Shown one piece after another: positions 9,769 through 44,122 of a stretch of 44,122 nucleotides of DNA. The stretch lies in assembly GCA_964503115.1 (NCBI GenBank), contig CAZDAF010000001.1:1-44122 (forward strand). Reading direction: 5' to 3'. The notes under the pieces were generated by a model. The model made no database searches. It saw only the letters and a list, made by a program, of their open reading frames with translations, and was not told the origin of the DNA. The stretch comes from an uncultured bacterium (GTDB lineage Bacteria; RBG-13-61-14; CAYWKU01). Numbering within the stretch: the first letter of the stretch is position 1; the number at the start of each line of letters is the position of its first letter. The position numbers and the translations under genes are program-made.

Positions 9769-10527
9769 TTATTTTCGCACCCGGTGCGGTTCAAACAAGC
9801 GGCTTTTGAAGATGCCCCGGCTGTGAAGCAGGTAAGTTAACACAACCCTGAGCACTCCCAGACCGTACTTGACGCTCGTTAGAAAACTGACGCTCGATGA
9901 ATCTTCGGCGTATCGAGTTCGAACGGGTATTTCCTTGAAACGCAGCCCCGCATCGAGGCATTGCACGATAATTTCGTTGTCGAAAACAAAATCGTTCGAG
10001 TTGGATTTATAGTTGACGCTTTCGAGCGCACGGCTGCTGAAGGCTCGGTATCCCGTGTGGAACTCGCTGAACGAAGTGCCGAGCGCCTTGTTTTCGATCC
10101 ATGTGAGGGTTTTGTTGAATATATACTTGTAAGCGGGCATCCCGCCCGCAATCGGATCGCCGAGCATACGGCTGGCAAGCACCACGTCCGCCTCGCCGCC
10201 CCGGATGGGTTCGACCAGGTCGGGTATTATGCGCGGGTCGTACTGGTAATCGGGATGAAGCATCACGACGATCTCGGCGCCCATCGCCAGCGCGTGGGTG
10301 TAGCATGTTTTCTGGTTGGCGCCGTAGCCGAGGTTTTTGGGGTGCTCGATGACCTCGAGATTCAAATCGCGGGCGACGTCGGCGGTATCGTCGCTCGAAG
10401 CGTCATCCACCAGCAGAACGGCGTCGCAGCTTCCTTCCGGTATGGCGTGGCATGTCTTGGCGAGCGTTTGCGCCGCGTTATAAGCGGGCATGACCACCAC
10501 TACTTTCGGACTTGTTTCTTCGACCAT
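9769..10527 (-). CDS. GT2-family glycosyltransferase, polyprenyl-phosphate sugar synthase (DPM1/ArnC)-like, soluble form
   Basis: Contains VVVMPAYNAAQTL, LLVDDASSDDT and the HPDYQYDP (DxD-like) region. It is 252 aa with no C-terminal TM helices. Confidence 0.85.
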   Translation of the reverse strand: MVEETSPKVVVVMPAYNAAQTLAKTCHAIPEGSCDAVLLVDDASSDDTADVARDLNLEVIEHPKNLGYGANQKTCYTHALAMGAEIVVMLHPDYQYDPRIIPDLVEPIRGGEADVVLASRMLGDPIAGGMPAYKYIFNKTLTWIENKALGTSFSEFHTGYRAFSSRALESVNYKSNSNDFVFDNEIIVQCLDAGLRFKEIPVRTRYAEDSSSVSFLTSVKYGLGVLRVVLTYLLHSRGIFKSRLFEPHRVRK

Positions 10528-10602: not shown

Positions 10603-11496
10603 CTATTTTCCCACATGCTTGGTAATAAATGTATTCAAACCGTTGGTATACTGCTTTCCCGACGTTATAAAGCCGTCATTATGCATACCTGAAATTTCTA
10701 GAAATGCCTTTGGTTCATTTGCTGAATCGAACAGGCGGCGCCCATGGCTATATGGCACTATTTCGTCATCCCGGCTATGAATAATCAATATCGGACATTT
10801 CACTTGCCGAACATACTCGACGGTATTGTAGTTATAGCGCGCAATCAGCTTTACCGGAAGGTATGGGAAATGTTTGGCGCCAATATCCCGAAAAGAGGTG
10901 AATGCGGATTCAACAATAAGTGCTTTGGGGTTGTGTCCTTTTGCAAGCCACGAGCCGATAGCTCCCCCGAGAGACCGCCCAAGAACAATAATCTCGTCCG
11001 GTGATACCTTTTGGTTTCGCACAAGATATCGCCATGCCGCTTCCGCGGCGAGATATGTCCCCTGCTCCGTTGTCTTTCCCTCACTTTGGCCATATCCGGG
11101 ATAATCGAAAATAAAAGTACCGAGGCCAAGTCGTTGAAATACCTGAACAGAATCCAGATAATATGATATATTTGCCATATTGCTGTGGCAAAACAATATC
11201 ACTCCCTTGGGTTTTTCAGAGGGAATCAACCATCCGTTAAGCTTAACTCCATCCCCCATTTCAAAATGTACGTCTTCATAAGAAAGACCAACGTGGTCAG
11301 GCGTATTGATAATTTCACTTACCGGCCTATAGATATAAACAGATTGGAAGAAAAAGAGAAAAATCATGAGGCCCACATAGACTCCTGCCATAATCCGGAT
11401 AGCCGAAAAGAGTAGACGCCTGTGTTTTTTACGAACTTCTTTCAAACCATTTTTCTTATAAAGGATAATCGCAACGATGCACGACCGTCTTGACAA
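10603..11496 (-). CDS. Membrane-anchored alpha/beta hydrolase (BEM46/ABHD13-like serine hydrolase)
   Basis: An N-terminal TM helix (GVYVGLMIFLFFF), then ILFCHSN, the GRSLGG nucleophile elbow and the IHSRDDEIVP/H catalytic region. The start is either the TTG at 11496 or the ATG at 11391. Confidence 0.8.
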   Translation of the reverse strand: MSRRSCIVAIILYKKNGLKEVRKKHRRLLFSAIRIMAGVYVGLMIFLFFFQSVYIYRPVSEIINTPDHVGLSYEDVHFEMGDGVKLNGWLIPSEKPKGVILFCHSNMANISYYLDSVQVFQRLGLGTFIFDYPGYGQSEGKTTEQGTYLAAEAAWRYLVRNQKVSPDEIIVLGRSLGGAIGSWLAKGHNPKALIVESAFTSFRDIGAKHFPYLPVKLIARYNYNTVEYVRQVKCPILIIHSRDDEIVPYSHGRRLFDSANEPKAFLEISGMHNDGFITSGKQYTNGLNTFITKHVGK

Positions 11497-11553: not shown

Positions 11554-11627
11554 GGCGGTGTAGCTCAGGTGGTTAGAGCATACGGCTCATATCCGTAGTG
11601 TCGTGGGTTCGACTCCCTCCACCGCCA
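11554..11627 (+). tRNA. tRNA with CAT anticodon (elongator tRNA-Met; lysidine-modified tRNA-Ile2 not excluded)
   Basis: It folds by eye into a cloverleaf. The acceptor stem is GGCGGTG/CACCGCC, the D arm is GCTC..GAGC, the anticodon stem is TACGG/CCGTA with loop CTCATAT, and the T arm is GTGGG TTCGACT CCCTC. Positions 1 and 72 are paired, so it is not an initiator tRNA. Confidence 0.85.
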
Positions 11628-11630
11628 TAG

Positions 11631-11659
11631 GCGGCGCAAATTACAAGCGCCGCTTTTTT
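11631..11659 (+). terminator. Rho-independent terminator after tRNA-Met
   Basis: A 7-bp GC stem GCGGCGC/GCGCCGC (11631-37 and 11647-53), a 9-nt loop, then TTTTTT (11654-59). The hairpin also abuts the stop codon of the convergent FGE-like gene. Confidence 0.6.
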
Positions 11660-12546
11660 CATTTAGTATCGGCCACGCACCTGAACCCGCCGCTATCGTC
11701 GGCTTGAAAGGTTCTTCTATATCCTCTCCGCCATGTAGTGGCCGCTTCCCGGCCCAAGGCCCAAGAGCCGCCTCGGACGGTATATGCATGCCACTCGGGG
11801 CGTAAATCTTCAGGAATGGACTTGTAAGATTCCGGGCCTTTGGGGTTGCGTTTGGGAGAGCGGGGGTAGTAATACGGCCAGTATATGTCCCACGTCCATT
11901 CGTATACGTTACCTGCCATATCGTAAACGCCGTAGGGGCTTTTATCCTCGGGAAAACTGCCCACCGGAGCGGTTCGGGCATATCCGTCCGATGCGTCCTC
12001 CCACGGAGATTTAGCAAGTCCGTGATTGGTTTTTTTCGGATCCCACTTGTTCCCCCATGGGTATTTCCTGCCGTCTTTACCGCGCGCGGCCTTCTCCCAT
12101 TCGGCTTCAGTCGGCAATCGCTTGCCCATCGTCCTGCAATAACGCTTTGCCATTCCGCGCCTTACGCAAACTACCGGGTGATCGGCCAACTCCAACGGGT
12201 ATTCGTGGTTCTCATTCCAAATCTTGGGAGGGGAGACGCCTCTCTCAACCTTCTGGCAGTTTGGGCCCAAAGGAGTTTTCTTTCCTCGAAGATGGTCACG
12301 TAAATCAATGAAGTTCTTGTAATCCGCATTGGTCACTTCATATTTATCTATTGCGTAAGCATCAAGGTACACGCGGTGTGGAGGTTGATGCGAAAAGTGT
12401 CCCTCTTTGCTTCCCATTGTGAACCATCCGGCGGGAATAAGCACCATATTGTCCGGGATTTCATTGACCGCATCGATGGATTCATAGGGAAGAATCGCCA
12501 GTACCAACGCGGCTAATACCAATTTACTTACATTACCTTTCATCAT
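11659..12546 (-). CDS. Secreted formylglycine-generating-enzyme (SUMF1/EgtB/PvdO) family protein
   Basis: Signal peptide MMKGNVSKLVLAALVLAILPYESIDA. Motifs MVLIPAGWFTMGS, HRVYLDAYAIDKYEVTN, GNVYEWTWD and VRGGSW. GGAGGAGG lies 2 nt before the ATG at 12546 (about 5 nt from its first GGAGG), so the track start at 12591 is probably too early. Confidence 0.85.
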   Translation of the reverse strand: MMKGNVSKLVLAALVLAILPYESIDAVNEIPDNMVLIPAGWFTMGSKEGHFSHQPPHRVYLDAYAIDKYEVTNADYKNFIDLRDHLRGKKTPLGPNCQKVERGVSPPKIWNENHEYPLELADHPVVCVRRGMAKRYCRTMGKRLPTEAEWEKAARGKDGRKYPWGNKWDPKKTNHGLAKSPWEDASDGYARTAPVGSFPEDKSPYGVYDMAGNVYEWTWDIYWPYYYPRSPKRNPKGPESYKSIPEDLRPEWHAYTVRGGSWALGREAATTWRRGYRRTFQADDSGGFRCVADTK

Positions 12547-12606
12547 GTCCTCCTCCCGTTTCAGCGTATCATATTTCCGCTTTACATTCAAATCCCTTCC
12601 TCGGGA

Positions 12607-13830
12607 TTAAAGTATTCTCTTAAGAAAATCGTTATATTTTTCCCCCACCTGCGACCACAGACAACCCGCCTCGACGAACTCCCGGGCGCGCATGCCCAGC
12701 TCTCTTCGCTCGTCGGAGTTGTTTACGGCCCAGCGCATGACTTCAAGTATGTCATCCACCTCCGACGGCCCGCAACTTATTTTTTTTACCACCTCGTCGG
12801 GGAACTCGCTGAAAGTTTCCGCATCCGTCACCACGCATGCGCGGCCCGCAGCCAATATCTGCATAAGGGACTGTGAACTCGATCCATAAACGGGTTTGCG
12901 AAGATTCAGGCACAAATCGGCACTGAATAAATATAGCCGGATTTTTTCCATAAGCACGAAGGACGCATCAATTAGAACTCGATCCCCTAGATTCCTTTGC
13001 GCCACCGCACGGTCTATATCCAGGTCGGGGCTGCGAGGGCCGACGAGCAACAGCATTGCGTCGGGCGCCTCTGTCACGAACCGGGCCCATGCGTCGAGAA
13101 TAGGCTCGATCCGTTTGTGCCGTTGGATGTAACCGAAAACGAGCGCGACGAAGGTATGCGGTTTGACGCCCTTTTCGTTCAGGCCGAGCGATTCGCGTGC
13201 CGCATCGGCGGGCATTTGGGCCGGAGCGGGTTGCACTGCAAGAGGCACCGTCATTATCGGGCACTCTGCGCCCGCGCGACGCACGGCGTCGGCCACCCAT
13301 CGGCTGTGAGTGATTATGCCCCGAGCGCAGCGCACCACTCGCCTTAAAAATGTAAAATAGTTCCGTTTAGACTCTTCGTCGAGATAAAGATTGTGAAGTA
13401 TACGCTGCGAAAATTTTCCACCGCCTTCCTTCAACGGGGCCATCATGCGCCTGACACCGTCCGCCCCTTCGTTCCGCAGAAAATCCGCCCAGAATTTCGC
13501 TCTCGATTTCCCCTCCCAGTACGAGATTACCATATCGTACAGCGTCGAGTCGTGAAGTGTTATCACTCCTCCGTGCCGGAGTATGTCCGGGTACATGTAG
13601 GCGTGCATCGGGCCGTTGGATGCCTGAAAAAGCGCGATATCCTCTTCGCCGCGAAACAGCTCGCGGTTTCTTACTTCGCCCAGGTCTTCGACAGCTTCCG
13701 GGCGATAGTCGCCATCTATGTAAAAGACGATTTTCCAGTTATCGGCCAATTGCCGGGCAAGATTGTCTGCATAATGCGCCACACCGCTCGGTAGAGGACT
13801 CAACGGGCTGAAAAACGCCAGTGTCTTCAT
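12607..13830 (-). CDS. GT4-family (GT-B fold) glycosyltransferase
   Basis: The N-terminus MKTLAFFSPLSPLPSGVAHY is typical of GT4 donors. The C-terminal half has a GT1/GT4-like nucleotide-sugar binding region (SSSQSLMQILAAGRACVVTD). Its ATG overlaps the upstream stop (ATGA at 13827-13830). Confidence 0.75.
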   Translation of the reverse strand: MKTLAFFSPLSPLPSGVAHYADNLARQLADNWKIVFYIDGDYRPEAVEDLGEVRNRELFRGEEDIALFQASNGPMHAYMYPDILRHGGVITLHDSTLYDMVISYWEGKSRAKFWADFLRNEGADGVRRMMAPLKEGGGKFSQRILHNLYLDEESKRNYFTFLRRVVRCARGIITHSRWVADAVRRAGAECPIMTVPLAVQPAPAQMPADAARESLGLNEKGVKPHTFVALVFGYIQRHKRIEPILDAWARFVTEAPDAMLLLVGPRSPDLDIDRAVAQRNLGDRVLIDASFVLMEKIRLYLFSADLCLNLRKPVYGSSSQSLMQILAAGRACVVTDAETFSEFPDEVVKKISCGPSEVDDILEVMRWAVNNSDERRELGMRAREFVEAGCLWSQVGEKYNDFLKRIL

Positions 13831-16502
13831 CGGCCCGCCGATTCGGTGTAGATTTGCAGCAGCTTCTCGATGTGGAAGCCCTTGGCGTACCGTTCCATAG
13901 CATGCTGCCGGTGGTTTAATCCCATGGTTTTTCTCAGAGCGGGGTCTTTCGCCAGCCTGTCGATTCTTATGGCCATAGCGCGTGTGCGGCCTCGAGGAAC
14001 CAGATCGCCCCCTTCACCGTCGACGAGCCATTCGCCGACCGCGCCGACGTCAAACGCCACCACGGGCCTCGCGTGCGCCGCCGCCTCGACGCCGACGTAT
14101 CCAAACGGCTCCGGCCAGATACTGGTAAAAACCACCGCATGGCACTTACGGTACTCGAGCTCCATCCGTCGAGGAGTAAGTTGTCCTGCGAATTCGAGCC
14201 GGTCAATCAATTCGAGTTCCACCGCTTTGCGTCTCACAAAATCTTCGGCCGGGCCGGTACCCGCCATCACGGCGGTCCATTCGGATTTGAGGTGATACAG
14301 TGCTTCGAGAAACAAGTCAGGCCCCTTGTCCGGCACCACCATTCGCCCCGCCCACAGTATCCGCAAGGGAATTTCATCGTCCGGCTCGTTGAAATCTTCT
14401 GGAAACTCGACGTAAAGGGGCAAAACATCGACACTGCCGGCATCGATTCCGTTAGCGATAAGCTCCGAAGCCATAAACCGGGTGGTGGTGATAATCCGGG
14501 GCATTTTGCGCGCCGCATCGATCCCGTCGAGCACGTGGCCGAGCCGCGACATTAAAAGCAGAGGCCGCCTGCCAAGCACCATACAGCCTCCATCGAGCAA
14601 CTTGTCTATACATGCCCACCCGGCGGGCAACGAGCAGACGCGGCCGCATGTCCACATGCGATTCATCGATGGGCAGGTCAGGTTGTGATCGTGGACGGTT
14701 CTTATAGTGGGCGCCAGTTCTGCGCAGATATCCATTATCCGAGCGGGCCCGACGTTGTGGATATGTATCAGGTCGGGCTTGAAATCTCGCGCGGCGGCTT
14801 TGATGTCTCGCCGCATATCGCTAACAGGAACGGGATCCCATAACCCGCGAACGCGATACCGCTCGAAATCCATGCCTTCCCAATCGCCGGCCTCATCAAA
14901 CGCCCACGCCACCTTGACGTTGCGACCTGCAAGTTCGTCCGAAATGTCCCGTATATATCGCTCCGTCCCGCCCGCTGCGCCTCCGTGATCGTTGACCATC
15001 AGGATGCGCATGCTTTCAGCGGATTTTGCTTTAGCTTGCGGTTTTAAAGCAGGCGACGACGCCGGTAACCTTCGCCTCGCTTCGTGCGCCGCAGTTTTCG
15101 CTAACGTCACCGGCACTGCCAGGAGAGTCCGGGCATCGCGAGCCACATCGCGCAGCCATCCTTTCCGGTCGTGTTGCAGACGCAGCAATCTTATAGCCCT
15201 GCGCCGCCGGGATTCGCTTATATCGGGAGCAAGAAGCAGGTGGTATAAACCCTGCCTGACGTGCACCGTACGGTATGCTTTTACCATGTCGCTTGCGGAA
15301 TATCCTTCGAGCTCGAAAATCGGTTTCGGGCTCGTCCCGAAATGCCGCGTGGTGCGCCAATCGTCGAGAAAGCGGCCTTCCTTTTGTATTACGTCCCATA
15401 CCTTTGTGCCGGGATAAGGCGCCAGGATGTTGAAATGCGCCCAGTCGAGACCGAGAGTTTTTGCATAGTCGAGGCTCGCCACCGTGCCTTCGTAAGTGTC
15501 GCCCGGCAGGCCGATGATAAAGTAACCTCCGACCCGCAGCCCAATCTCCTTCGATATATGTACGGCACGCTCGATATCGGCGAGCTTTTCGCCTTTTCTC
15601 AATGAAGTGAAAATCTCCGGGTTCCCCGTTTCCACGCCGAATATCACCGTATGACACCCTGCCACCGCCATTGCTTCCAACAAATCGGGCGTCACGCGGT
15701 CGGCACGGATGCCGTTCGGGCAACTCCATCGCATGCCCAGCTTCCGGTCGATTATAAGCCTGCAAATTTCTCCGGCGCGCTCCACGTTGTGAGTAAAAGT
15801 GTCATCGAGTACATCGAACTCCGGGAATCCCCACTTGTCCCTGGCGCGCTCGAGTTCGTCCACGACACTTGAAGGGGATCGGTATCGCCACTTGCGCCCA
15901 CTGACTTTGCCTACCGAGCAATAAATGCATCCATGCGGGCAGCCACGGCTCGTGACAAGGGGGTAATGATGATCGAGCAGTTTGCTGCCGACGAACCGGT
16001 CAAAGCTCGGAAAGGGAAGATCATCGAGGGCCATGGGTAATTCCGCCGGAATGCAACGCGTTCCACCCGCCGAGCGGAATATCAGGCCGTTTATTTCCGG
16101 AAAATCTCCCTTACCGTCCCATTTTGCCGGCAATTCCGGCAAGCTCACTTCCGCGTCTCCGGCGATGGCGGCATCAATTTGAGGCACTTGCGCCAACAAC
16201 TCCTCGCCATAGAGCGTCACGTGCGGCCCGCCCGCAATTATGGGCGTGTGTTCAAATGCGGACTTAAGAACTTTCGATACATGGACGGAGGAGGTATAAG
16301 TGGCCGTTTTTATGCTTAACCCGAAGTATTCCGGCCGGTGCCGCTCGGCGATGCGCAGCAGGTTTGCGTCGCTCGGGTCGCCGTTGACCATATCGAGCAC
16401 AAGGTGGTCTATACCTGCCGCTTCGAGCGCGCCCGATAAATACGCGAGTCCCGCGTTTATGCCCGCCTGCTCGCCGGGGGGGTCTATGAGCAATATTCTC
16501 AC
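13827..16502 (-). CDS. Fusion protein: B12-binding-domain radical SAM enzyme (aa 1 to about 480) plus GT4 glycosyltransferase (aa 498-891)
   Basis: The N-terminus MRILLIDPP...IAGGPHVT is a cobalamin-binding Rossmann-like domain, and TSRGCPHGCIYCSV is the CxxxCxxC radical SAM cluster motif. An A/K/P/S-rich linker follows. MRILMVNDHGGAAGGTERY at aa 498 looks like a native GT4 N-terminus. SIWPEPFGYVGVEAAAHARPVVAFDVGAVGEWL is the GT4 EX7E region. It has a GTG start overlapping the upstream stop (GTGA). Confidence 0.85.
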   Translation of the reverse strand: MRILLIDPPGEQAGINAGLAYLSGALEAAGIDHLVLDMVNGDPSDANLLRIAERHRPEYFGLSIKTATYTSSVHVSKVLKSAFEHTPIIAGGPHVTLYGEELLAQVPQIDAAIAGDAEVSLPELPAKWDGKGDFPEINGLIFRSAGGTRCIPAELPMALDDLPFPSFDRFVGSKLLDHHYPLVTSRGCPHGCIYCSVGKVSGRKWRYRSPSSVVDELERARDKWGFPEFDVLDDTFTHNVERAGEICRLIIDRKLGMRWSCPNGIRADRVTPDLLEAMAVAGCHTVIFGVETGNPEIFTSLRKGEKLADIERAVHISKEIGLRVGGYFIIGLPGDTYEGTVASLDYAKTLGLDWAHFNILAPYPGTKVWDVIQKEGRFLDDWRTTRHFGTSPKPIFELEGYSASDMVKAYRTVHVRQGLYHLLLAPDISESRRRRAIRLLRLQHDRKGWLRDVARDARTLLAVPVTLAKTAAHEARRRLPASSPALKPQAKAKSAESMRILMVNDHGGAAGGTERYIRDISDELAGRNVKVAWAFDEAGDWEGMDFERYRVRGLWDPVPVSDMRRDIKAAARDFKPDLIHIHNVGPARIMDICAELAPTIRTVHDHNLTCPSMNRMWTCGRVCSLPAGWACIDKLLDGGCMVLGRRPLLLMSRLGHVLDGIDAARKMPRIITTTRFMASELIANGIDAGSVDVLPLYVEFPEDFNEPDDEIPLRILWAGRMVVPDKGPDLFLEALYHLKSEWTAVMAGTGPAEDFVRRKAVELELIDRLEFAGQLTPRRMELEYRKCHAVVFTSIWPEPFGYVGVEAAAHARPVVAFDVGAVGEWLVDGEGGDLVPRGRTRAMAIRIDRLAKDPALRKTMGLNHRQHAMERYAKGFHIEKLLQIYTESAGR

Positions 16503-19024
16503 AGTGGCGTCACCTCGATTTCCACTTCGATTTTCTCGCCGCCTGCCTCGCTGAACCAGACTATTTTTCGGTCCAACATATCCACAATGATTTTATACTT
16601 GCCGGGAACGGTGGGAGCGCGCGCCTTCAGGCTGACTTTCGCAGTCTCTCCGGGGGGAACGGACCTTTGCAGAAACCCGTAATTCAAGAGAGGCGCTTTG
16701 TCGGGATCGAGCTTATTGCCGGCTTCGTCAAACCAGTCATAAATGGAAAAAGTTATAACTCCTCGAAAATCGCCATTGGTGTCGAACCGACGCGCGCGCC
16801 ACAGGGTGTTACCTACGTTTTTAACGACCGCCTTGACTTCAAATTCCTCCCCGGCTTTTAGCCGTTGTGGAACTTCGAGCGTAATAAACTCCGCTTTGAG
16901 CAGGTCGGGAACGGTGCTGTCCGGGTAGTCTCCGATTTCCTGCCTAAATTTGATCTCTCGATGAAATTCGTCCGATCCCCGGATGGAAAAATTCACTATC
17001 CATTCATAATCCCCCTCGGATTCCGGCGCTGTGAAATTGAACGCCACCCATTGCTTTTCGCCGGGATCGAGCATGATTAAACCACGCAGGCGCTTGGATT
17101 GCTTTGATTTGTCGTGCGCGCCGCTTACCTTTGCAGTCGCCCCGAAATCGGCAAGCTCGAAGAAATAAACCGGCATATCACCCACGACGGAAAGACATAT
17201 CTCGACGTGGAATTGCGCTCCGGGCCTGACTCCGACAGGCACAAAGACTTCCTTAATTTCAAGACCTTCCCACTTGAGACGTCGCTCTTTATCGACCGGG
17301 TCGGGTACCTCGTACACGATGTCCGGACCTAACCGCTCGACCTCCGGGAGAAAAGTTCCCACCCGGCGGGCAAACCCGGCCGTATCGAAATTGTCATCCC
17401 ACTCGTATGAACCCGTATGTAACACAACGTATTTGACGCCAAGATACCTGAGTATGTTCACCGTCGCGCTCGAAGGGAATGCCGCCAGCGATTTGATCAC
17501 GTGCCTGCTGGTGTGAGGCAAAAATCCGGATCTGCCGTTGATGATATTTTTCCAGTGGTACGTCGAGTAATACATGTACTTGAAACCGAGAGGATCGCCG
17601 TCGCCCCATTTTTCTCTCGGCAATACGATTAAACTTGGCAGTTGGGGAATTTCGGCAATGGCGAAATCGTCGGGCTGCTTCGCCAGCCACCTGTAAACCC
17701 GGGGGACGGTATCTCCGCTTTTCACCTCATGATACGGAATCGGCGAGGAGTAAAATTCGGCGATAACCAACGCCGGAACGGCGAAAACCCATATCACCTT
17801 ACGGGAGCGACTCCTGATACGTTCCGACACGCGCATCATGCCGTATGCCGCCAGTATCGCCATTCCCATTTCGACCACGTATGCGAACCGCGATGGCACC
17901 CGCAGCGCTCCGAAACCGGGCAGGTAATATGCCGCCATGTACGGCAGCGGCACCGGCAGGCGATGCCAGCAGATATGCAACCACGGCCCCAGTGAAAAAA
18001 CGAACGCTACCGCCGCTACCCACAGGTAGGTTTTCTGCTCGCGCTCGAGTCGGCGCTTTGAGCGTGAGAACAGCCCCAAACCGGCCAATATAAGCACGCT
18101 TATACCCAGAAACAGGCGGTTTTCGTTCGGGTATGGGCTGTATCGATTCTCCAATTGGTACGTGATCCCTCCCCACAAGCGGTTCCAGGGCGGCGCCCGG
18201 AAATAATCCAGCGGATCCGCCGACATGCTTTCCGCTTCCGCGATGGTTCTCACCAACCCTTGCGATCTTGCTACCCGGTAATAAGGCGGCATCGTCGGCG
18301 CAATCATCAGAGCCACAAGCAGGCCCGCGCCTGTCAATCGAACCCAAAGCGCTTTGTCGAGCCTGCCACGGGCACGCACAAGTTCCACCATAAACACCAT
18401 TCCCACCGCCAGGCCGCCCGTGGCGGCAAGGTAGAAGCTGGACAAAGCATGAAGCCCGAAAAAAAGCCCGAAAAAAAGCGCATCGCTCCAGCGCCGCTCG
18501 TCCATCGTTCGGTGGAAAAACAATAACGCAAAGGGCAACCATTGAGAAGTCAGAAGCTGCGATTCGTGGCCCAGTTGACTGAACCTCCACGGGCAGTAAG
18601 CGTAAATGATTCCCGCGACCAGCGCTGCGGTGAAATTGCCGGTAAGACGGCGCGCCAGAAGAAACATACCCAGTCCGCCAAGCGCAAAACTGACGTAAGT
18701 TACTGCGTTGTGCGCGAAAATCGGGTTCGACGTAATCAGTAAAAACGGAGCGGCCAATATCGACGACGCAAGCAGGTGATCCGAGTACGCCAATGCGTTA
18801 TGATTGGGCCAGAAAATATTCGCGTCCCACAAACCGCCGAGCCCGGTGGTCAGTTTGTGAACGTCCCAGGCAAGTATCCATGTGTGGAGGAGGCCGTCCC
18901 AGCGGTCGTGCATTATGTTTCCCATGTTATAAGATATGGGCGCATACATAATAAAAGTCAGAAGCGCGAAAAAAATCGCCGCCACAACGGCTTCCAGCCA
19001 CACTCTCGAACGGTTCGCCGACAT
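16499..19024 (-). CDS. Large polytopic membrane protein, GT-C-fold (ArnT/PMT/YfhO-like) candidate glycosyltransferase with a C-terminal Ig-like/CARDB-like extracytoplasmic region
   Basis: The first 430 aa or so are multi-TM, with an early acidic/aromatic loop (HDRWDGLLHTWILAWDVHKL...WDANIFWP...YSDH) typical of GT-C-like proteins. The C-terminal 400 aa or so contain beta-rich repeats such as GEEFEVKAVVKNVGNTLW and PGETAKVSLKARAPTVPGKYKIIVDM. The exact family is not resolved by eye. Confidence 0.65.
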   Translation of the reverse strand: MSANRSRVWLEAVVAAIFFALLTFIMYAPISYNMGNIMHDRWDGLLHTWILAWDVHKLTTGLGGLWDANIFWPNHNALAYSDHLLASSILAAPFLLITSNPIFAHNAVTYVSFALGGLGMFLLARRLTGNFTAALVAGIIYAYCPWRFSQLGHESQLLTSQWLPFALLFFHRTMDERRWSDALFFGLFFGLHALSSFYLAATGGLAVGMVFMVELVRARGRLDKALWVRLTGAGLLVALMIAPTMPPYYRVARSQGLVRTIAEAESMSADPLDYFRAPPWNRLWGGITYQLENRYSPYPNENRLFLGISVLILAGLGLFSRSKRRLEREQKTYLWVAAVAFVFSLGPWLHICWHRLPVPLPYMAAYYLPGFGALRVPSRFAYVVEMGMAILAAYGMMRVSERIRSRSRKVIWVFAVPALVIAEFYSSPIPYHEVKSGDTVPRVYRWLAKQPDDFAIAEIPQLPSLIVLPREKWGDGDPLGFKYMYYSTYHWKNIINGRSGFLPHTSRHVIKSLAAFPSSATVNILRYLGVKYVVLHTGSYEWDDNFDTAGFARRVGTFLPEVERLGPDIVYEVPDPVDKERRLKWEGLEIKEVFVPVGVRPGAQFHVEICLSVVGDMPVYFFELADFGATAKVSGAHDKSKQSKRLRGLIMLDPGEKQWVAFNFTAPESEGDYEWIVNFSIRGSDEFHREIKFRQEIGDYPDSTVPDLLKAEFITLEVPQRLKAGEEFEVKAVVKNVGNTLWRARRFDTNGDFRGVITFSIYDWFDEAGNKLDPDKAPLLNYGFLQRSVPPGETAKVSLKARAPTVPGKYKIIVDMLDRKIVWFSEAGGEKIEVEIEVTPL

Positions 19025-19190
19025 GAACTTAAATTACCACAAACCGCCGCTGCCCAAAAGCGGCGTATAACCGGAAGACCTTCCGGGCAGGTCATAGGGA
19101 CATAACCCCGCCCTTGTAAAGTACGCATTCTCTGACTATGCTGAAAATTAGAGCTTTGTTTAAGTACCCTCGAAAAAGGAGGTCAATGCT

Positions 19191-19556
19191 ATGGAACTGG
19201 ACGTTTTTTCTTTTGTAAAGACGGTCACCAGGTACGGCTATGCGTTCGAGATGACTTTTAAGTTCAGGGGAGAGGTTGCTCCTTACGAGATTGAGTTCTT
19301 CGCCGGAGAACTGGACGCCGCCCTGAAAAGCAAGAAATGGCCCATCGCGCAGGTTTATAACTGGGATCTTGCGCGGGGTTTTCTCGTGCTGCCGATAGTC
19401 GACGTTAATGACGAAGGGATCAAAAAGCGCGCTACGGCGATGAAAGAACTAATAGACACGGCGCTGGCGAGAGCTAACGAGCGGATAGAAAAATTTGACA
19501 CGGAACTCAACCCCGTCATCGATGCATACAAGGAAATCTTTTCCGCACAGAGCTAA
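19191..19556 (+). CDS. Hypothetical 121-aa protein, no recognisable family
   Basis: A strong AAGGAGG lies 8 nt before the ATG. The composition looks like real coding sequence, with a predicted helical C-terminus. It sits directly upstream of paaK on the same strand. Confidence 0.55.
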   Translation: MELDVFSFVKTVTRYGYAFEMTFKFRGEVAPYEIEFFAGELDAALKSKKWPIAQVYNWDLARGFLVLPIVDVNDEGIKKRATAMKELIDTALARANERIEKFDTELNPVIDAYKEIFSAQS

Positions 19557-22715: not shown

Positions 22716-23879
22716 ATGAAAGTGGCCGGTAAGACGGTATTGACGGGAACTCATTTCATGCACGGCGATCACGCATGTTGCGAGGGCGCCCTTGCGGCGG
22801 GATGCCTTTTCTTCGGCGGCTATCCTATAACGCCTGCGACCGAGGTTGCCGAGCGTATGTCGCGGCGACTGCCGGAAATAGGGGGCATTTACATCCAGAT
22901 GGAGGACGAGTTGGGCTCGATCGCCGCAGTGCTAGGCGCCAGTTGGGGCGGTACGAAGGCTATGACCAGCACTTCGGGGCCGGGATTTTCGCTCATGATG
23001 GAAAACATCGGCCTTGGCGTTTGCACCGAGACCCCGTGCGTTGTCTGCAACGTGCAACGAGCCGGGCCCAGTACGGGCCTGCCCACTCTGGCCGGCCAAG
23101 GGGATATGATGCAGGCTCGATGGGGGTCTCACGGACATTACGAGATAATCGCCCTTTCGCCATCAAGCCCGCAGGAGATGTTCGATTTCACCATCAGGGC
23201 TTTTAACTTAAGCGAGCAATTTCGTATTCCGGTCTTGATCATGTCCGACGAAGTGGTCGGTCACATGCTCGAACGCGTAGTGATCCCTCCCGAGAATGAG
23301 ATCGAACTCATCAAGCGCCGAAAACCGAAAGTATCTCCCGATCAGTACCTGCCATATAAGGCGGATCCCGACTGGATAGCGCCAATGGCCGACTTCGGAG
23401 ACGGGTATCGTATGCACATAACCGGCTTGACTCACGACGAAAGAGGCTACCCGGTCATGGACGCCACTACGCAGGAGAATATGATAACCAGACTGGTACG
23501 AAAAATTCGGGATAATACGGATAAAATAATCGATTACGACACTTTCGAACTCGACGACGCCGAAGTGGTCGTGGTAGCGTACGGCATCAGCGCGAGGTCT
23601 GCGAAGCGTGCGGTTCGCGATGCTCGACAAAAGGGTCTTCGTGCCGGCTTTATCAAGCTGAACACCGTCTGGCCTTTCCCTGAAGAGTTTATCCGCGACG
23701 TGGCCGGTAATGTACGGGCCATGCTCATGCCGGAGATCAATTACGGCCAGATGGTTCTCGAGCTCGAGCGTTGCGCTCAAGGCCGCTGCATGGTGCGGCT
23801 GGTGCAACATGCCGGTGGGGGCATCATCCCTCCCGGCTCCATCGTCGACGCCGTCGAGACCGCGCTAAAGGAGTCATAA
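22716..23879 (+). CDS. korA: 2-oxoacid:ferredoxin oxidoreductase alpha subunit
   Basis: Contains GYPITPATEV, TSGPGFSLM and the QRAGPSTGLPT motif typical of OFOR alpha subunits. About 387 aa. Confidence 0.9.
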   Translation: MKVAGKTVLTGTHFMHGDHACCEGALAAGCLFFGGYPITPATEVAERMSRRLPEIGGIYIQMEDELGSIAAVLGASWGGTKAMTSTSGPGFSLMMENIGLGVCTETPCVVCNVQRAGPSTGLPTLAGQGDMMQARWGSHGHYEIIALSPSSPQEMFDFTIRAFNLSEQFRIPVLIMSDEVVGHMLERVVIPPENEIELIKRRKPKVSPDQYLPYKADPDWIAPMADFGDGYRMHITGLTHDERGYPVMDATTQENMITRLVRKIRDNTDKIIDYDTFELDDAEVVVVAYGISARSAKRAVRDARQKGLRAGFIKLNTVWPFPEEFIRDVAGNVRAMLMPEINYGQMVLELERCAQGRCMVRLVQHAGGGIIPPGSIVDAVETALKES

Positions 23880-24772
23880 TGAGCGCCAGAAAAAGCAAAG
23901 CTATCACGCATCCTCAGGACGAACTGCTTCGTACCGACCGCATTCCGCACATATGGTGCTCCGGCTGCGGTATCGGGACGGTTTTCAGTTGCGTAATAGC
24001 GGCGATACAGAAATCCGGGTATCCGCTGGACGATGTGTCGATGATTTCCGGCATCGGCTGCACCGGGCGAATGGCGGGCTACATTAAGCTCGATTCGTTC
24101 CATACCACCCACGGCCGCGCTATTCCCTTTGCCACCGGGCTGAAGCTGGCTCGACCCGAAAGTCGCGTCTTGGTCGCATCGGGAGACGGCGACCTGTTGG
24201 CCATCGGCGGCAACCATCTTATACATGCCGCGCGGCGCAATATAGACATCACCGTCATCTGCGTCAATAACCTTAACTATGGCATGACCGGCGGACAGGT
24301 TGCCCCAAGCACGCCGTTCGGAGCGAAAACCGCCACCACACCTATCGGTTCACCTGAAGAACCTTTTAATTTTTGCGCGCTTGCCGCCGCTTGTGGAGCG
24401 GTATACGTTGCGCGCTGGACATCGTTGCATATTCGCAGGCTCACGGATTCGATTTCCGAGGCGATGCAAAAACGCGGATTCAGCTTCGTCGAAATACTTA
24501 CCCCCTGTCCCACATCGTTTGGCAGGCGCAACAAAATGCGAAATGCGCTCGACATCGTTAAATTTTACCACGAGCATTCGGTCATACGAAACGATATCGA
24601 CCCTAAAGAGGCAACTCTTGATTTCAGCAGAAACCTGGTAATGGGTAAGTTCGTGGATATTGAGCGGCCCACATTCCTGGATAATTACAGCCTGATAAAC
24701 AGGCGGGAACTTGGAGACTGGCCCAATCTGGAAGAAAAAGTCGCCGTGACCGGGAAAAGGATATCAAAGTAG
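23879..24772 (+). CDS. korB: 2-oxoacid:ferredoxin oxidoreductase beta subunit (TPP-binding)
   Basis: Contains WCSGCGIG, the GIGC cluster/TPP region, GDGD, and NNLNYGMTGGQ. The ATG overlaps the korA stop (TAATG). The track ORF starts earlier, at 23771, inside korA. Confidence 0.9.
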   Translation: MSARKSKAITHPQDELLRTDRIPHIWCSGCGIGTVFSCVIAAIQKSGYPLDDVSMISGIGCTGRMAGYIKLDSFHTTHGRAIPFATGLKLARPESRVLVASGDGDLLAIGGNHLIHAARRNIDITVICVNNLNYGMTGGQVAPSTPFGAKTATTPIGSPEEPFNFCALAAACGAVYVARWTSLHIRRLTDSISEAMQKRGFSFVEILTPCPTSFGRRNKMRNALDIVKFYHEHSVIRNDIDPKEATLDFSRNLVMGKFVDIERPTFLDNYSLINRRELGDWPNLEEKVAVTGKRISK

Positions 24773-24776
24773 AGCC

Positions 24777-25367
24777 ATGACGGATAAAACCGAAAAGGAA
24801 ATACTTATTACCGGCTTTGGCGGCCAGGGTATTATCCTCGCGGGGAATATCATGGGCAAAGCTGCGGCGCTATACGACAATAAACACGCCACCATGACCC
24901 AAGCCTATGGTCCCGAGGCTCGCGGGGGAGCTTGTTCGTCACAGGTTATGATAAGCGACGAGCAAATACTATATCCATACGTCGAGCGGCCACGGGTGCT
25001 GATCTGTATGAGCCAGGAAGGATATTCCAAAAATGTATCTTCACTGGATTCCGGCGGACTTCTAATTTGGGATACCGACCTCGTTCAAACCGATGATCCC
25101 GACCCGAGTTGGATTACCTGCCATATCCCGGCTACTCGTTTCGCAGAGGAGTTGGGCAACAAAATGATGGCCAACATTGTGATGCTGGGTTTTGTGTCTG
25201 CTGTGAGTGATCTGGTGAGTGTCGAGTCTTTTCGTAAAGCTGTCTTGGATTCCGTGCCACCTCACACAAAGGACAAAAACGTTGCGGCATTCGACCGGGG
25301 TCGCGAGTACGGTGAGGCTATCCTTAAAAGCCGGGCCAAGCAGGACGAAAACCGGCAGGAAGGATGA
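24777..25367 (+). CDS. korC: 2-oxoacid:ferredoxin oxidoreductase gamma subunit
   Basis: ILITGFGGQGIILAG and YGPEARGG are typical gamma-subunit motifs. Confidence 0.9.
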   Translation: MTDKTEKEILITGFGGQGIILAGNIMGKAAALYDNKHATMTQAYGPEARGGACSSQVMISDEQILYPYVERPRVLICMSQEGYSKNVSSLDSGGLLIWDTDLVQTDDPDPSWITCHIPATRFAEELGNKMMANIVMLGFVSAVSDLVSVESFRKAVLDSVPPHTKDKNVAAFDRGREYGEAILKSRAKQDENRQEG

Positions 25368-28300
25368 CGACCGCGGCGAAAATGGACGGCCCTGAAAAAG
25401 CCGTTTTGATAGTAGGGCCAGGCTACGGGGCGTTAAAAGTGGCCGAGGACCTTGCTCAGTCCGGCATCCCTGTGGTATGGGTGACACGAGCTCCTCACTT
25501 CCTCGAGTTGCCCGGTGGCATCGAGACCCTCGCGGAGTGGCCGGATGACCTTAATTTCCAGTTCAGGCCTCTATATCTCCGCGTGACCCGACATTCCCTG
25601 GTCACTCCCCTCACCCGGGCTCGAATAGAATCCATCGAGCGCATTCAAGACGACTATCGGGCCAATATAGTCCAGGATCCCATGTATGTGGATTACGACC
25701 TTTGCACCGGGTGCGGCCGGTGTATTGAAGTTTGCCCGCTCAACGAGTCCGAACAGCCTCCCCTGACGCGAACCCCCGCCTATTGCCCTTCGCGAGCCCT
25801 CGATCTTGACAAGCGTAAACTAAGCCGGTGTCGGGAGAGTTGCCCGCTGGGAGTTAACGTGCAGGCATATATGGCGCTGACGGCACAGGCGCGTTTTGAT
25901 GAAGCGCTTGCCGTGATAAAGGACGACAATCCTTTGCCCGGCGTTTGCGGCCGGGTTTGCCATCACCCTTGCGAGGAGTCGTGCCGCCGCGCCGAATTGG
26001 ATCAGGCGGTGGCCATACGGGACATCAAGCGTTTTTTGGCCGACCACGAAGCGCGCGGGCGGCAGCCCCGGCTCGATATTCCCGATAGTCCTCGCAGACC
26101 CGAACGTGTGGCGGTGATCGGCTCGGGGCCGGCGGGATTGACCGCCGCGCATTTCCTCAACCGGGCAGGTTTCCCGGTTACGATATTTGAGGCTATGCCT
26201 GAACCGGGGGGAATGCTGCGAGCCGGGATCAATGCATTCCGCCTCCCCAGACCGGTGTTGGATGCGGAAATAAAAGCCATTGTGGACGCTGGAGTCGAGA
26301 TATGCACCGACGTGATGGTAAGTTCCATTGATAACCTTTTTAGTGAAGGATTTCGGGCGGTGCTCCTTTGCACCGGCGCCCATCGCGATCTTCGCCTGAA
26401 TATACCGGGTGAGGATGCCGAGGGAATATTCGGCGCGGTTGAAATGCTAAAAGATTTCAACATTCGACAAAAAGTAAAGATTGGGGAAGACGTCGCCGTT
26501 ATAGGCGGCGGTAATTCCGCCGTGGACACCGCCCGGACCGCTATAAGGTTAGGGGCCCGGACAGTTACCATTTATTACCGCCGAAAGCACGAGGATATGC
26601 CGGCGGAGGAATTTGAAATCACGGCGGCCCAAGAAGAAGGAGTTCAAATCGAGTACTTGACGGCACCGGTTCGCGTGATTGTCGAGGAGGGAAAAGTTAC
26701 GGGACTCGATCTCACGCGCATGCGCCTGGGAGAAATCGACTCAAGCGGGCGCGGTCGACCGGAACCGATAGAAGGTTCGGAGTTCTCAGTAAAGGCGAAC
26801 ACGGTGATTGTCGCCATTAGTCAAGAACCCGACCTGGAGGAGACCGGTTTAGGTGGTGAGTTCGAGAAGGGCCGTGGCGGAAGGGTTATAGTGGATGAGC
26901 GCTGTTCCACATCCCGCAAGGGGGTTTTCGCAGCGGGCGATGTGGTTACCGGCCCTTCTACCGTAATCGGTTCAATGGCCGATGGCCGGATGGCGGCCGG
27001 GCGTGCAATAGAATATCTCACTGGCGAGCCGTCGGCATTCGTCAAGCTGTCGGCTGAGTCCCGTGGAGTCGGGGATTATCTGGATATTTCGGAGGATACC
27101 CCTCGCCAATGGCGCCCTGAGATGGCGCAACGGCAACCGAAAGTACGGTGCCGCGACTTCGAGGAAGTGAGTTTCGGACTCACCGCCGAGCAGGCGGTTG
27201 CCGAAGCACAACGTTGTATTCAATGCGGTTTGTGTTGTGAGTGTCGAGTTTGCGAGACCGCTTGTGCCGAAATAGGGGCAATCGACCACTTTCGGCCCAC
27301 CCGAAGTATTGAGGTTTTAAGCCCCGGCATAGTCGTCGCCGACGCCGATGAGATGCCCCAAAAAAACGATCTCGGAGATGAGCGGATTTACCGGTTAGGC
27401 GACTTCCAGCACACAACAGATCTCATGAATGTGATGGTAGCCGGCAGTGCTGCCGCCGGTCAGGTCATGGCCCATGCGGCGGTGCTTAGGACGGAGGTTG
27501 TTCCCGAGGAACCCAAGCCGCCGGAAATATCTGAGGAGTTGCGACTGGGAGTTTTCGTCTGCACCTGTAACGGAACCATGGCGCCTTCCGGAGCGCTCGA
27601 GCGTATCCGCGAATTGGTCGCCGACGTGCCGGGGGTTGAACACTGCGAGTTAATTTTCTCGGCCTGCCACCCTCGAGGTTCCGACCAGATAGCGCGCGCC
27701 GTGAAGGAACACCGGCTGACACGGGTCATTATGGCCTCATGTATATGCTGTCCGCTCGATTTTCATTGTATATCATGCAACGATCAGAGGACCCGCGCCA
27801 AAAAGCATCTTTTCGACCGGTTGGGCCTTTCAAGAAGCGATTTCGATATGATCAACATCAAGGATCATCTCCATCCCGAAGGAAAATCAGAGGACGAAAT
27901 TGTGGAGCGAGCTCGCTATCTCCTGCGCGGGGCTTTCATACGGGCCCGTTTCCTGGGCCCATTGCGACAGGGAACCACGGAAATCGGGAGTCGTATTCTC
28001 ATTCTGGGCGGATCGGAAGTGGGTATCAGTTGCGCCCTCAACCTGGACAACCAGGGGTTTCGCGTGCGGCTGGTTCATCGCTGCCGAATTAAGGATGGCC
28101 CCGAACCGCCCAAGTCGGTCTTGAAAAGACCGGTTGACCTGACTCAAGGCCGATCCATCACTCACGTCGAGGAGGCCGTGATCGAGGAAATCCGCGGAAA
28201 TGTGGGTGATTTCACGGTAATACTGGGCGAGGAAGGGCCGCAGCACAGATGGAGGGCCGACATCATTTGCCTGACCGACGAGCACTTGCTGCCCCTGGCC

Positions 28301-28735: not shown

Positions 28736-28736
28736 C

Positions 28737-29159
28737 ATGGAAAAGATCAATTTACTGGGAATCTGCTGTAACTGGAGTCCTTACGCATGCTACAATGCCG
28801 CGGGAATGGCCAAGATGAAGATGCCGCCGAACTTCCGGCTGATACGTGTGATGTGTATTGGCCGGATTAACCAGGCCATGATCCTGAGGGCCTTCGAGTT
28901 TGGGGCGGACGGTGTGATACTTCTCGAATGCAAAGACGAGGACTGCCGCTACGGGCCCGGGCCGGAAGTCGGTCATGTCAACGTACAGCGGGTGCGGGAG
29001 ATTCTGCGTCTTCTCGGCATCGGTCAGAAGCGGTTGGTGGAGCGCAGCTTTTCCGCACACGAAAAAGAGGAGTTGGTCAAGGCGCTTTGGGATTTTGCCG
29101 AACTCATCGAGTCCATGGGGCCGAACCCGGCCAAACCCCGCCAGGAACGGGTGGTGTAA
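28737..29159 (+). CDS. mvhD: MvhD/FlpD-type hydrogenase iron-sulfur subunit (methyl-viologen-reducing hydrogenase delta-like)
   Basis: The MvhD signature is LLGICCNWSPYACYNAAGMAKMKMPPNFRLIRVMCIGRIN...GADGVILLECKDEDCRY. It starts 1 nt after the hdrL-like stop. Confidence 0.85.
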   Translation: MEKINLLGICCNWSPYACYNAAGMAKMKMPPNFRLIRVMCIGRINQAMILRAFEFGADGVILLECKDEDCRYGPGPEVGHVNVQRVREILRLLGIGQKRLVERSFSAHEKEELVKALWDFAELIESMGPNPAKPRQERVV

Positions 29160-32011: not shown

Positions 32012-32063
32012 CTCTGTCGACTTCCTCCGGGCGGCCGGATTTTCGGAGAGGTTATATTCAATT

Positions 32064-36406: not shown

Positions 36407-36412
36407 TCGCTC

Positions 36413-38152: not shown

Positions 38153-38183
38153 GACTATTCATGTTGCATGGAGGCGAGGAAAT

Positions 38184-42464: not shown

Positions 42465-42471
42465 AGCGGAA

Positions 42472-44067: not shown

Positions 44068-44122
<55 letters not shown>

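Follow-up and report, generated by a model that had tools for sequence, protein, structure and literature searches.

A radical SAM–glycosyltransferase fusion coupled to a GT-C membrane protein: a candidate envelope glycoconjugate module of an uncultured bacterium

What might be made by an operon in which a radical S-adenosylmethionine (SAM) domain is fused to a glycosyltransferase (GT) and the fusion gene is chained to that of a polytopic membrane glycosyltransferase? This question is raised by four consecutive minus-strand genes on contig CAZDAF010000001.1 of an uncultured bacterium (assembly GCA_964503115.1), analyzed here over a stretch of 44,122 nucleotides that is called the window. The genes encode a predicted GT-C-type membrane protein, a B12-type radical SAM::GT4 (rSAM::GT4) fusion, a GT4-like protein, and a secreted protein with the fold of the formylglycine-generating enzyme (FGE). 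The operon is very probably an envelope glycoconjugate module. A more specific scheme, in which a lipid-linked sugar would be assembled and edited by radical chemistry in the cytoplasm and GT-C transfer from a likely monophosphate donor would follow on the outer face, is given an even chance of being correct. Neither the classes of enzymes nor the general logic is new, but the coupling of a B12-type radical SAM domain to a GT4, the pairing with a GT-C protein of the DUF6311 type, and the degenerate GT4 partner were not found described. A preliminary description of the same DNA had regarded the system as undescribed, in line with the literature, in which no mention of DUF6311 and no characterized fusion of a radical SAM enzyme with a glycosyltransferase were found.

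The positions of the genes and of their immediate surroundings are collected in Table 1. In the open reading frame (ORF) table of the window, the first three genes of the operon form a minus-strand run with a fourth frame at 11659-12591. The start of this last gene is most plausibly the ATG at 12546, which lies 3' of a GGAGGAGG ribosome-binding site and gives a protein of 295 aa. The GT-C and rSAM::GT4 genes share a GTGA overlap at 16499-16502 (CTG-TGA with GTG-AGA), the rSAM::GT4 and GT4-like genes share an ATGA overlap at 13827-13830 (ATG-A), and 60 nt separate the stop codon of the 407-aa gene from the FGE-fold gene, with its start taken at 12546. Four chained genes with these two overlaps and this gap had been described before, and both the ORF table and the junction sequences bear this out, just as Pfam reproduces all of the domain assignments made for the four proteins.

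Table 1. Features of the operon and its immediate surroundings, with positions in the window
Feature	Position	Strand	Remarks
GT-C gene	16499-19024	-	841 aa, ATG start
rSAM::GT4 gene	13827-16502	-	891 aa, GTG start
GT4-like gene	12607-13830	-	407 aa, ATG start
FGE-fold gene	11659-12546	-	295 aa (most plausible start); final operon gene, in the closest subclade only
Divergent intergenic region 5' of the GT-C gene	19025-19190		presumed promoter region (sequence, ORF table)
tRNA-Met (CAT)	11554-11627	+	Rfam tRNA 64.6 bits, ARAGORN; opposite strand, convergent with the operon
alpha/beta hydrolase gene	10603-11496	-	297 aa; Pfam Hydrolase_4 and Abhydrolase_1; membrane-anchored, N-terminal hydrophobic segment aa 27-56
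GT2 gene	9769-10527	-	252 aa, soluble; candidate donor-maker for the GT-C protein; separate transcription unit beyond the tRNA

The gene order is more than chance, as it recurs in independent contigs with unrelated flanks. In the following, L-numbers denote loci on metagenome or metagenome-assembled genome contigs that carry relatives, and P-numbers denote protein relatives. The fusion is 61% identical to that of the window in L001/L002, 63% in L003, 64% in L089, 54% in L007, 53% in L004, 52% in L005/L006, and 44% in L090. Across the loci with a fusion that is at least 44% identical (window included), the GT-C gene lies directly 5' of the rSAM::GT4 gene in eight of eight, so the loss of synteny in relatives that the preliminary description had named as fatal to its proposal was looked for and not found. 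The GT4-like gene follows the rSAM::GT4 gene in six of the eight core loci. In L005/L006, the GT4-like protein is joined to the C-terminus of the rSAM::GT4 protein as an rSAM::GT4::GT4 protein of 1325 aa, and this Rosetta-stone fusion links all three activities. The 4-nt overlap between the GT-C and rSAM genes is present in five of the seven relative loci examined, and that between the rSAM and GT4 genes in four of the five loci with a separate GT4. The four-gene unit proposed earlier thus holds for the GT-C, rSAM::GT4, and GT4-like genes, but not for the FGE-like gene, which occurs only in the closest subclade (three genomes).

The fusion is rare. A set of 5.8 billion clustered proteins contains only about ten full-length relatives. 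When 1.84 billion representatives were searched exhaustively with HMMER, only four matched from end to end, and the GTDB species representatives, scanned with an alignment of the fusion, yielded nothing above 42% identity. At 36-37% identity (L008, L094), the neighbors of the fusion gene are an epimerase gene, a WecA-like gene, and genes of other GT4s, and no GT-C gene is in view. A representative of the stand-alone radical SAM proteins (P0343) is found on a 1.6-kb contig. Wider relatives of the GT-C protein were collected in a metagenome scan with 13 close orthologues as query, which gave 80 loci from Joint Genome Institute (JGI) metagenomes; a radical SAM gene of the fusion's family is nearby in one of the 80. 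The dependence between the GT-C and radical SAM genes thus runs one way. Some full-length GT-C paralogues stand alone and others are paired in tandem, as in L091 (4670-9699), where two DUF6311-type paralogues overlap by 4 nt and no radical SAM gene is nearby; P0124 and P0128 likewise share one contig of 12.5 kb.

According to its structure model, the 841-aa protein is a predicted glycosyltransferase of the GT-C fold. PTPS_related and PMT_2, both of the GT-C clan, score above the Pfam cut-offs, and the C-terminal region matches N_BRCA1_IG with 25.8 bits, just under the cut-off of 28. The 13 close orthologues match PTPS_related (13/13), PMT_2 (11/13), and YfhO (7/13). PF19830 (DUF6311) is listed for the window protein and its orthologues in precomputed annotation but was found in none of the 13 orthologues in a separate Pfam-A scan, even at E <= 1; the Pfam copies behind the two evidently differ over this family. 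The AlphaFold2 (AF2) model was built from 67 homologues and reached a predicted local distance difference test score (pLDDT) of 94.6 and a predicted template modelling score (pTM) of 0.91. In Foldseek comparisons with the PDB, the membrane part matches AftD best (E 3e-11), followed by STT3 (yeast, human), OST-A, DPY19, AglB, ArnT, PglB, and AftA, and the C-terminal beta-sandwiches match RbmA, transglutaminase, and Ig-like domains of the alpha-2-macroglobulin type. A sequence search against the PDB gave no match even at E <= 1, which leaves the fold comparison as the informative one. The same comparison settles a second point on which the earlier proposal had been made to depend, namely that the protein might turn out to be a transporter or another non-glycosyltransferase: AF2 and Foldseek find the GT-C fold.

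The protein carries an extracytoplasmic alpha/beta domain and tandem Ig-like beta-sandwich domains (residues ~585-841). Arg/Lys-rich loops (~320-331 and ~397-409) stand before helices of the AF2 model, and because they precede the last transmembrane helices, the positive-inside rule places the loop with R375/R379 and residues ~426-841 outside the membrane. The large extracytoplasmic Ig-like region that had been proposed for this protein is thus consistent with the loop charges. The first extracytoplasmic loop, which follows the first helix, contains D43, a residue with 98% conservation across the 67 homologues; for R375 and R379 the figure is 97-99%. D40 does not vary among the 13 close orthologues. 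In the model, D43 sits between helix 2-26 and the loop helices 43-60. The WWDxG motif is missing, as neither a WW dipeptide nor WWD occurs anywhere in the sequence, which rules out membership in the oligosaccharyltransferases (STT3/PglB/AglB). On the outer face, the GT-C protein would draw on a donor linked to polyprenyl phosphate; the conserved R375/R379 pair in an outward-facing loop and a polyprenyl-phosphate-sugar-synthase-like GT2 gene nearby bear on this proposal.

The 891-aa fusion is an intact class-B (B12-domain) radical SAM enzyme joined to an intact retaining GT4. It consists of a B12-binding domain (aa 14-124, 62.8 bits in Pfam), a radical SAM core (aa 183-345, Radical_SAM 77.2 bits), a helical linker, and the GT4 part (aa ~498-891, Glyco_transf_4 48.8 bits and Glycos_transf_1 85.6 bits). 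In ten orthologues, the radical SAM motif C188-x3-C192-x2-C195 and the EX7E glutamates E798 and E806 of the fused GT4 are invariant, as are C610, C623, C631, and C640 in the N-domain of the GT4. These four cysteines may form a structural zinc site or a cluster site. They stand beside an HDH motif in residues 604-640 (window 14583-14693, minus strand), the model confidence drops to a pLDDT of ~75 in this region, and the same C...C...C...C pattern recurs in the stand-alone GT4 relatives P0348, P0374, and P0462. The AF2 model of the whole fusion has a pLDDT of 93. Its N-terminal half is most similar in Foldseek to MgmA (9ccb), TsrM, AprD4, CysS, TokK, and OxsB, and its C-terminal half to BshA, MshA, HepE, and PimA, with template modelling (TM) scores of ~0.8 for BshA, MshA, and HepE. 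Judged from its domains, the radical SAM half is predicted to be cobalamin-dependent. The window also contains consecutive plus-strand genes for a URO-D/MtaA-like methyltransferase, a B12-binding corrinoid protein, and a Met_synt_B12 activation-domain protein (41310-43823). Evidently, methyl groups are transferred by corrinoid-dependent enzymes in the source organism, in keeping with a supply of cobalamin for the radical SAM half.

Among curated families, the radical SAM half matches HpnJ (TIGR03471) best, with 160.9 bits versus an equivalog cut-off of 577.6, followed by ApyD, BchE, and several methylases. Because every such score lies far below its cut-off, the reaction cannot be read from similarity. 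Membership in HpnJ was rejected, as the score is under the cut-off and the window ORFs include no shc or hpn genes. An anti-phage defence function, prompted by a weak "GT4-conflict" match in Pfam, was rejected as well by a PADLOC scan, in which the radical SAM protein gave the sole match (PDC-M51A, generic, 51 bits) and the five other proteins matched nothing. The enzymes that the two halves resemble also bring up a soluble small-molecule pathway, which would yield a glycoside, compatible solute, thiol cofactor, or aminoglycoside-like product and would have the GT-C gene as an incidental neighbor. The GT4 half is closest in structure to BshA and MshA, with a TM score of 0.8, and the radical SAM half resembles AprD4, which acts on aminoglycosides. 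Such a pathway is nevertheless barely credible, given that the GT-C gene is adjacent in 8/8 loci of the clade, with a start/stop overlap, that no further natural-product genes are nearby, and that PADLOC shows no membership in a defence system.

The 407-aa protein is a conserved but non-canonical GT-B protein, as far as its sequence tells. Its GT4 matches in Pfam are weak (32-33 bits), and in seven of seven orthologues the EX7E motif is replaced by an invariant PVYGSSS-x-SL-x-Q without any glutamate. Of the two GT4 modules in the preliminary description, the fused one is intact, but the claim was overstated for the 407-aa protein, which lacks both EX7E glutamates. Neither this protein nor the fusion contains hydrophobic segments, and the C-terminal part of the GT-C protein is placed outside, which fits the division of labor between cytoplasmic and extracytoplasmic steps that had been suggested.

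The two cysteines C336 and C341 of human FGE are catalytic and bind copper. The 295-aa protein matches FGE-sulfatase with 187 bits in Pfam and has a hydrophobic, signal-like segment at its N-terminus, but in the alignment it has L at the position of C336 and A at that of C341, as also do the orthologues of L001 and L003. The protein had been described as a member of the SUMF1/FGE family with a signal peptide; the fold and the signal-like N-terminus stand, whereas a formylglycine-generating activity, and with it a role in sulfatase maturation, was rejected because both catalytic cysteines are replaced. Its gene is found in the window, L001/L002, and L003 only, and is missing 3' of the GT4 gene in the 64%-identical L089 and in remoter loci. 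It may encode a lineage-specific periplasmic accessory protein that is possibly glycan-binding. The co-encoded secreted protein in three genomes touches on another explanation, protein glycosylation, in which the GT-C protein would be a PMT-, DPY19-, or oligosaccharyltransferase-like enzyme that attaches the modified sugar to secreted proteins, among them possibly the FGE-like one. PMT_2 by sequence and STT3, PglB, and DPY19 by structure agree with this explanation. It is very unlikely all the same: the GT-C protein has no WWDxG motif, the FGE-like gene is missing from most core loci, and no acceptor protein is indicated.

The genomic surroundings of more distant relatives place the radical SAM and GT-C families in the biosynthesis of lipid-linked envelope glycans, because these relatives lie in glycan loci. 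Relatives of the radical SAM half are fused to GT2 domains (P0014, P0018, P0028, P0034, P0076), to an FkbM methyltransferase (P0061), or to a class-I methyltransferase (L014, 9920-12154; L093, 16869-19028). Many others (among P0012-P0031 and elsewhere) have ~750 aa and end in ~250 residues without a Pfam match. L014, from Omnitrophota, combines an epimerase, a GT2, the rSAM::methyltransferase, a GT4, a second radical SAM protein, a GT-C relative, a nucleotidyltransferase, and a carbamoyltransferase, and L093 holds Wzm and Wzt_C. In L109 (9929-20127), the genes after that of a 38%-identical full-length GT-C protein encode a Wzx-like flippase, a methyltransferase, two GT4s, a GDP-mannose dehydratase, and a WbaP-like initiating transferase. 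No recognizable Wzy is present in this locus, and the GT-C family member may substitute there for a polymerase or a ligase.

The main rival explanation starts from such loci. In block transfer or polymerization, which was the version of the preliminary description and would resemble Pgl or O-antigen systems, the two GT-B proteins and the radical SAM domain would build an oligosaccharide on polyprenyl pyrophosphate, and the GT-C protein would move the whole glycan as a polymerase, ligase, or transferase to a lipid, polymer, or protein outside the membrane. PglA and WlaC, GT4s that extend glycans on undecaprenyl pyrophosphate, are among the sequence matches, and the structures that the GT-C protein matches include STT3, PglB, and AglB. 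The Wzx- and WbaP-type locus L109 without an obvious Wzy, a Polysacc_synt_C fragment directly 5' of the GT-C gene in L005, and the WecA-like gene of L008 point the same way. PMT_2, PTPS_related, YfhO, and AftD use monophosphate-linked single sugars, and the first three are the nearest families and the last is the top fold match of the GT-C protein, which speaks for a different donor than a pyrophosphate-linked glycan. Together with the missing WWDxG motif and the absence of an initiating transferase or Wzx from the window, L001, L003, L089, and L090, this makes block transfer doubtful.

Polyprenyl-phosphate-sugar synthases of family GT2 are the usual donor-making class for GT-C transferases. 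The GT2 protein beyond the tRNA gene, which the first reading of the DNA had passed over, is the most informative neighbor of the GT-C gene in this respect. Its best NCBIfam matches are AglJ (E 1e-23), the polyprenyl-phospho-GalNAc (N-acetylgalactosamine) synthase PpgS (9e-22), and a dolichyl-phosphate-hexose transferase (8e-15), with scores of 54-84 bits versus equivalog cut-offs of 325-375. Orthologues that are 80% identical occupy the same position in L001 and L003. Among the 80 wider GT-C relatives, a GT2 of the PpgS/AglJ kind is near seven, once with a 4-nt overlap (L140).

With such a GT2, the operon could also serve a Gtr-like decoration, in which the GT-C and GT2 proteins would put one side-chain sugar on an existing envelope polymer. 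The rSAM::GT4 and GT4-like proteins would then modify the polyprenyl-phosphate donor before flipping, as ArnD and the pentofuranose epimerases do, and would build no acceptor. Three-component systems in which auxiliary enzymes alter the lipid-linked sugar of the donor and the GT-C enzyme carries a C-terminal carbohydrate-binding module are well documented and established (PMC11127046). The PpgS/AglJ-like nature of the GT2 and the compact form of the module among housekeeping genes fit this picture. Decoration is still distinctly improbable, since the editing of a monosaccharide donor needs no two GT-B domains, the GT2 gene is not beside the core in most loci, and Pfam scans of the window ORFs detect no GtrA or MATE-type flippase.

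Folds, motifs, topology cues, synteny, the gene fusion, and rarity are what the analysis shows. For the substrates, the order of the steps, the radical SAM reaction, and the final product, we infer the following scheme of cytoplasmic assembly and editing with subsequent transfer outside, in which the operon would be a self-contained module for a modified, lipid-anchored envelope glycoconjugate. On the cytoplasmic face, the fused GT4 would use a nucleotide sugar to glycosylate a lipid-linked acceptor, which would be a membrane lipid or a saccharide linked to polyprenyl (pyro)phosphate. The fused B12-type radical SAM domain would then modify this sugar at an unactivated carbon by radical chemistry. 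Most members of the B12 type are annotated as methylases, and HpnJ and the archaeal calditol synthase Cds are radical SAM enzymes that are proposed to contract a lipid-bound hexose into a cyclitol (PMC13459092). For the fusion, C-methylation is slightly favored over an HpnJ-like rearrangement; the alternatives to methylation would be a ring rearrangement as in HpnJ/Cds or a dehydration as in AprD4. The GT4-like protein would act at an adjacent step, either by adding a second sugar or as a non-canonical partner. After flipping of the intermediate, the GT-C protein would carry out the extracytoplasmic glycosyl transfer with D43 and R375/R379, while its C-terminal Ig-like domains would hold the glycan as a glycan-binding module. 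The donor would most probably be a polyprenyl-monophosphate sugar, for example the product of the nearby PpgS/AglJ-like GT2. In its logic, this scheme has parallels in the mycobacterial assembly of phosphatidylinositol mannosides and lipoarabinomannan and in three-component periplasmic glycosylation.

A bolder form of the scheme takes the acceptor to be a membrane lipid. The rSAM::GT4 protein would glycosylate this lipid and convert the sugar into a carbocyclic head group (similar to calditol or the cyclitol ether) or a C-branched one, which the DUF6311-type GT-C protein would extend outside. This form is improbable as it stands. If true, uncultivated anaerobic bacteria would have an envelope glycolipid of a new class, resistant to acid or glycosidases, and the fusion would be the first enzyme that physically couples a glycosyltransferase to a radical SAM domain for sugar editing.

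Several observations weigh against the scheme of cytoplasmic editing and GT-C transfer. The GT2 gene lies beyond the antisense tRNA and is kept in three related genomes only; it is not adjacent in L005, L089, and L090. Because its product is 80% identical between the genomes versus 50-63% for the operon proteins, the adjacency may reflect shared ancestry and not function. With no flippase, initiating transferase, or exporter in the window, essential steps must be encoded elsewhere. Without a radical SAM gene nearby in 79 of the 80 wider GT-C loci, the coupling is clade-specific. The missing EX7E motif means that the 407-aa protein may not be catalytic, and all family scores of the radical SAM half are far under the equivalog cut-offs. 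Finally, AprD4 has a B12-like domain yet is reported not to use cobalamin.

The operon ends at the tRNA-Met gene, because this antisense gene lies directly 3' of the FGE-like gene in the window and also in L001 (14866-14939) and L003 (15140-15214), where it stands between the FGE-like and GT2 genes. This boundary had gone unmentioned before. A minus-strand ORF that overlaps the tRNA gene (11565-12017) is probably spurious. The alpha/beta hydrolase was considered as a fifth component and rejected, as neither the space between the tRNA and GT2 genes in L001/L003 nor any other locus holds a counterpart; the protein is probably outside the system. Its gene stands between the tRNA and GT2 genes in this window only and resembles an insertion beside a tRNA gene. 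At the other end, the divergent intergenic region contains no consensus sigma-70 site called by the promoter scan and no riboswitch or other Rfam match. The scan found eight promoter-like sites versus 8.0 expected from shuffled sequence. Terminator-like sites are in modest excess (21 found versus 12.8 ± 3.6 expected from shuffled sequence), lie mostly within coding regions, and in no case coincide with the ends of the operon. A plus-strand ORF of 121 aa (19191-19556) with a good ribosome-binding site diverges from the operon and is followed by a PaaK-like phenylacetate-CoA ligase gene; it matches no family in Pfam or NCBIfam.

When essentially all larger ORFs of the window were scanned with Pfam, neither a flippase nor Wzy/Wzz, an ABC exporter, an initiating phosphoglycosyltransferase, or a sulfatase came to light, and among the window ORFs no GtrA, GtcA, MATE, or ArnE/F flippase did. 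This agrees with the preliminary description, which had seen no flippase, Wzy/Wzz, ABC exporter, or sulfatase. The window was thus rejected as a Wzx/Wzy- or ABC-dependent polysaccharide locus, for which the initiating transferase, the flippase or exporter, and the polymerase or regulator are all missing. According to Pfam, the remaining ORFs belong to central metabolism, glycogen, thiamine, and corrinoid methyltransferases. A plus-strand glycogen/alpha-glucan cluster (30782-39188) contains GlgC, three consecutive proteins of glycoside hydrolase family 57, one of them similar to 4-alpha-glucanotransferases and one to branching enzymes, and a uridylyltransferase of the GalT/HIT type. Relatives of this GlgC reach 82% identity, and the nearest ones with a name, from Anaeromyxobacter and Thermodesulfobacteriota, about 63%. 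A second plus-strand stretch (22716-30352) encodes three subunits of a 2-oxoacid:ferredoxin oxidoreductase, an Fe-S flavoprotein of 1123 aa, and an HdrD-like protein with CCG domains, and is an electron-transfer module of the anaerobe type. A partial tRNA gene (44069-44122, plus strand) is cut by the end of the window.

Knowledge of radical SAM reactions on sugars comes largely from antibiotics and from the head groups of two lipids, archaeal calditol and the cyclitol ether of hopanoids; to our knowledge, neither of the two lipid enzymes has been reconstituted. An enzyme that is fused to the presumed maker of its own substrate and translationally coupled to a GT-C protein offers a well-defined entry point. 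The substrate of the radical SAM half can be guessed, because it should equal the product of the GT4, and the ratio of 5'-deoxyadenosine to S-adenosylhomocysteine would separate methylation from rearrangement. Work on the module would yield the first function for the DUF6311-type GT-C family, and would point to an envelope component of little-studied anaerobic lineages.

How does the operon compare to known systems? With the class-B radical SAM enzymes GenK, AprD4, TokK, MgmA, and OxsB, the fusion shares the domain order, with a B12-type Rossmann domain at the N-terminus and a CxxxCxxC core after it, but the identity is only 16-21%, and these enzymes have neither a fused glycosyltransferase nor a link to a GT-C protein. 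The 295-aa protein has the FGE fold and is secreted like SUMF1, but with its replaced cysteines it resembles the non-FGE members of the family, pFGE/SUMF2, PorK/GldK, and PvdO. A likeness in pathway logic is found in HpnI-HpnK-HpnJ, which form the bacteriohopanetetrol cyclitol ether, and in Cds, where a glycosyltransferase attaches a hexose to a membrane lipid and rearrangement of this sugar by a radical SAM enzyme is proposed to follow (PMC13459092). In the operon, unlike in these pathways, the radical SAM domain is fused to the GT4 and coupled to a GT-C protein, an arrangement that neither pathway has.

The three-component systems for extracytoplasmic glycosylation that were compared are GtrA/B/C, CsbB-GtcA-YfhO, ArnC-ArnE/F-ArnT, and the GT136 pentofuranose systems (Kelly et al. 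2024, PMC11127046). The operon resembles them in the GT-C fold with a C-terminal extracytoplasmic beta-sandwich region and in the polyprenyl-phosphate-sugar-synthase-like GT2 nearby. It differs in that it has no flippase gene, that its conserved partners are a B12-type rSAM::GT4 and a GT4-like protein instead of a GT2, and that the GT2 gene is separated from the operon by a tRNA gene and is not found in most loci. We know of no three-component glycosylation system with a radical SAM enzyme, and none is among the parts of those described in PMC11127046.

Mycobacterial assembly of phosphatidylinositol mannosides (PIM), lipomannan, lipoarabinomannan (LAM), and arabinan is a further point of comparison. 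No orthology exists at the sequence level (12% identity to AftD), the operon contains a radical SAM domain, and its hosts are uncultivated anaerobes that are probably diderm, with a YhdP gene in L003. The enzyme classes are nevertheless the same as in that assembly, which relies on the GT4s PimA and PimB', the GT2s Ppm1/PpgS, and GT-C enzymes of the PimE/AftD type: two cytoplasmic GT-B proteins, a GT2 of the polyprenyl-phosphate-sugar type (putative in the window), and a GT-C protein with a large periplasmic domain. The likeness extends to the individual matches, as the GT-C protein has AftD as its top fold match, the GT4 matches include PimA, and the GT2 has PpgS as its second-best family.

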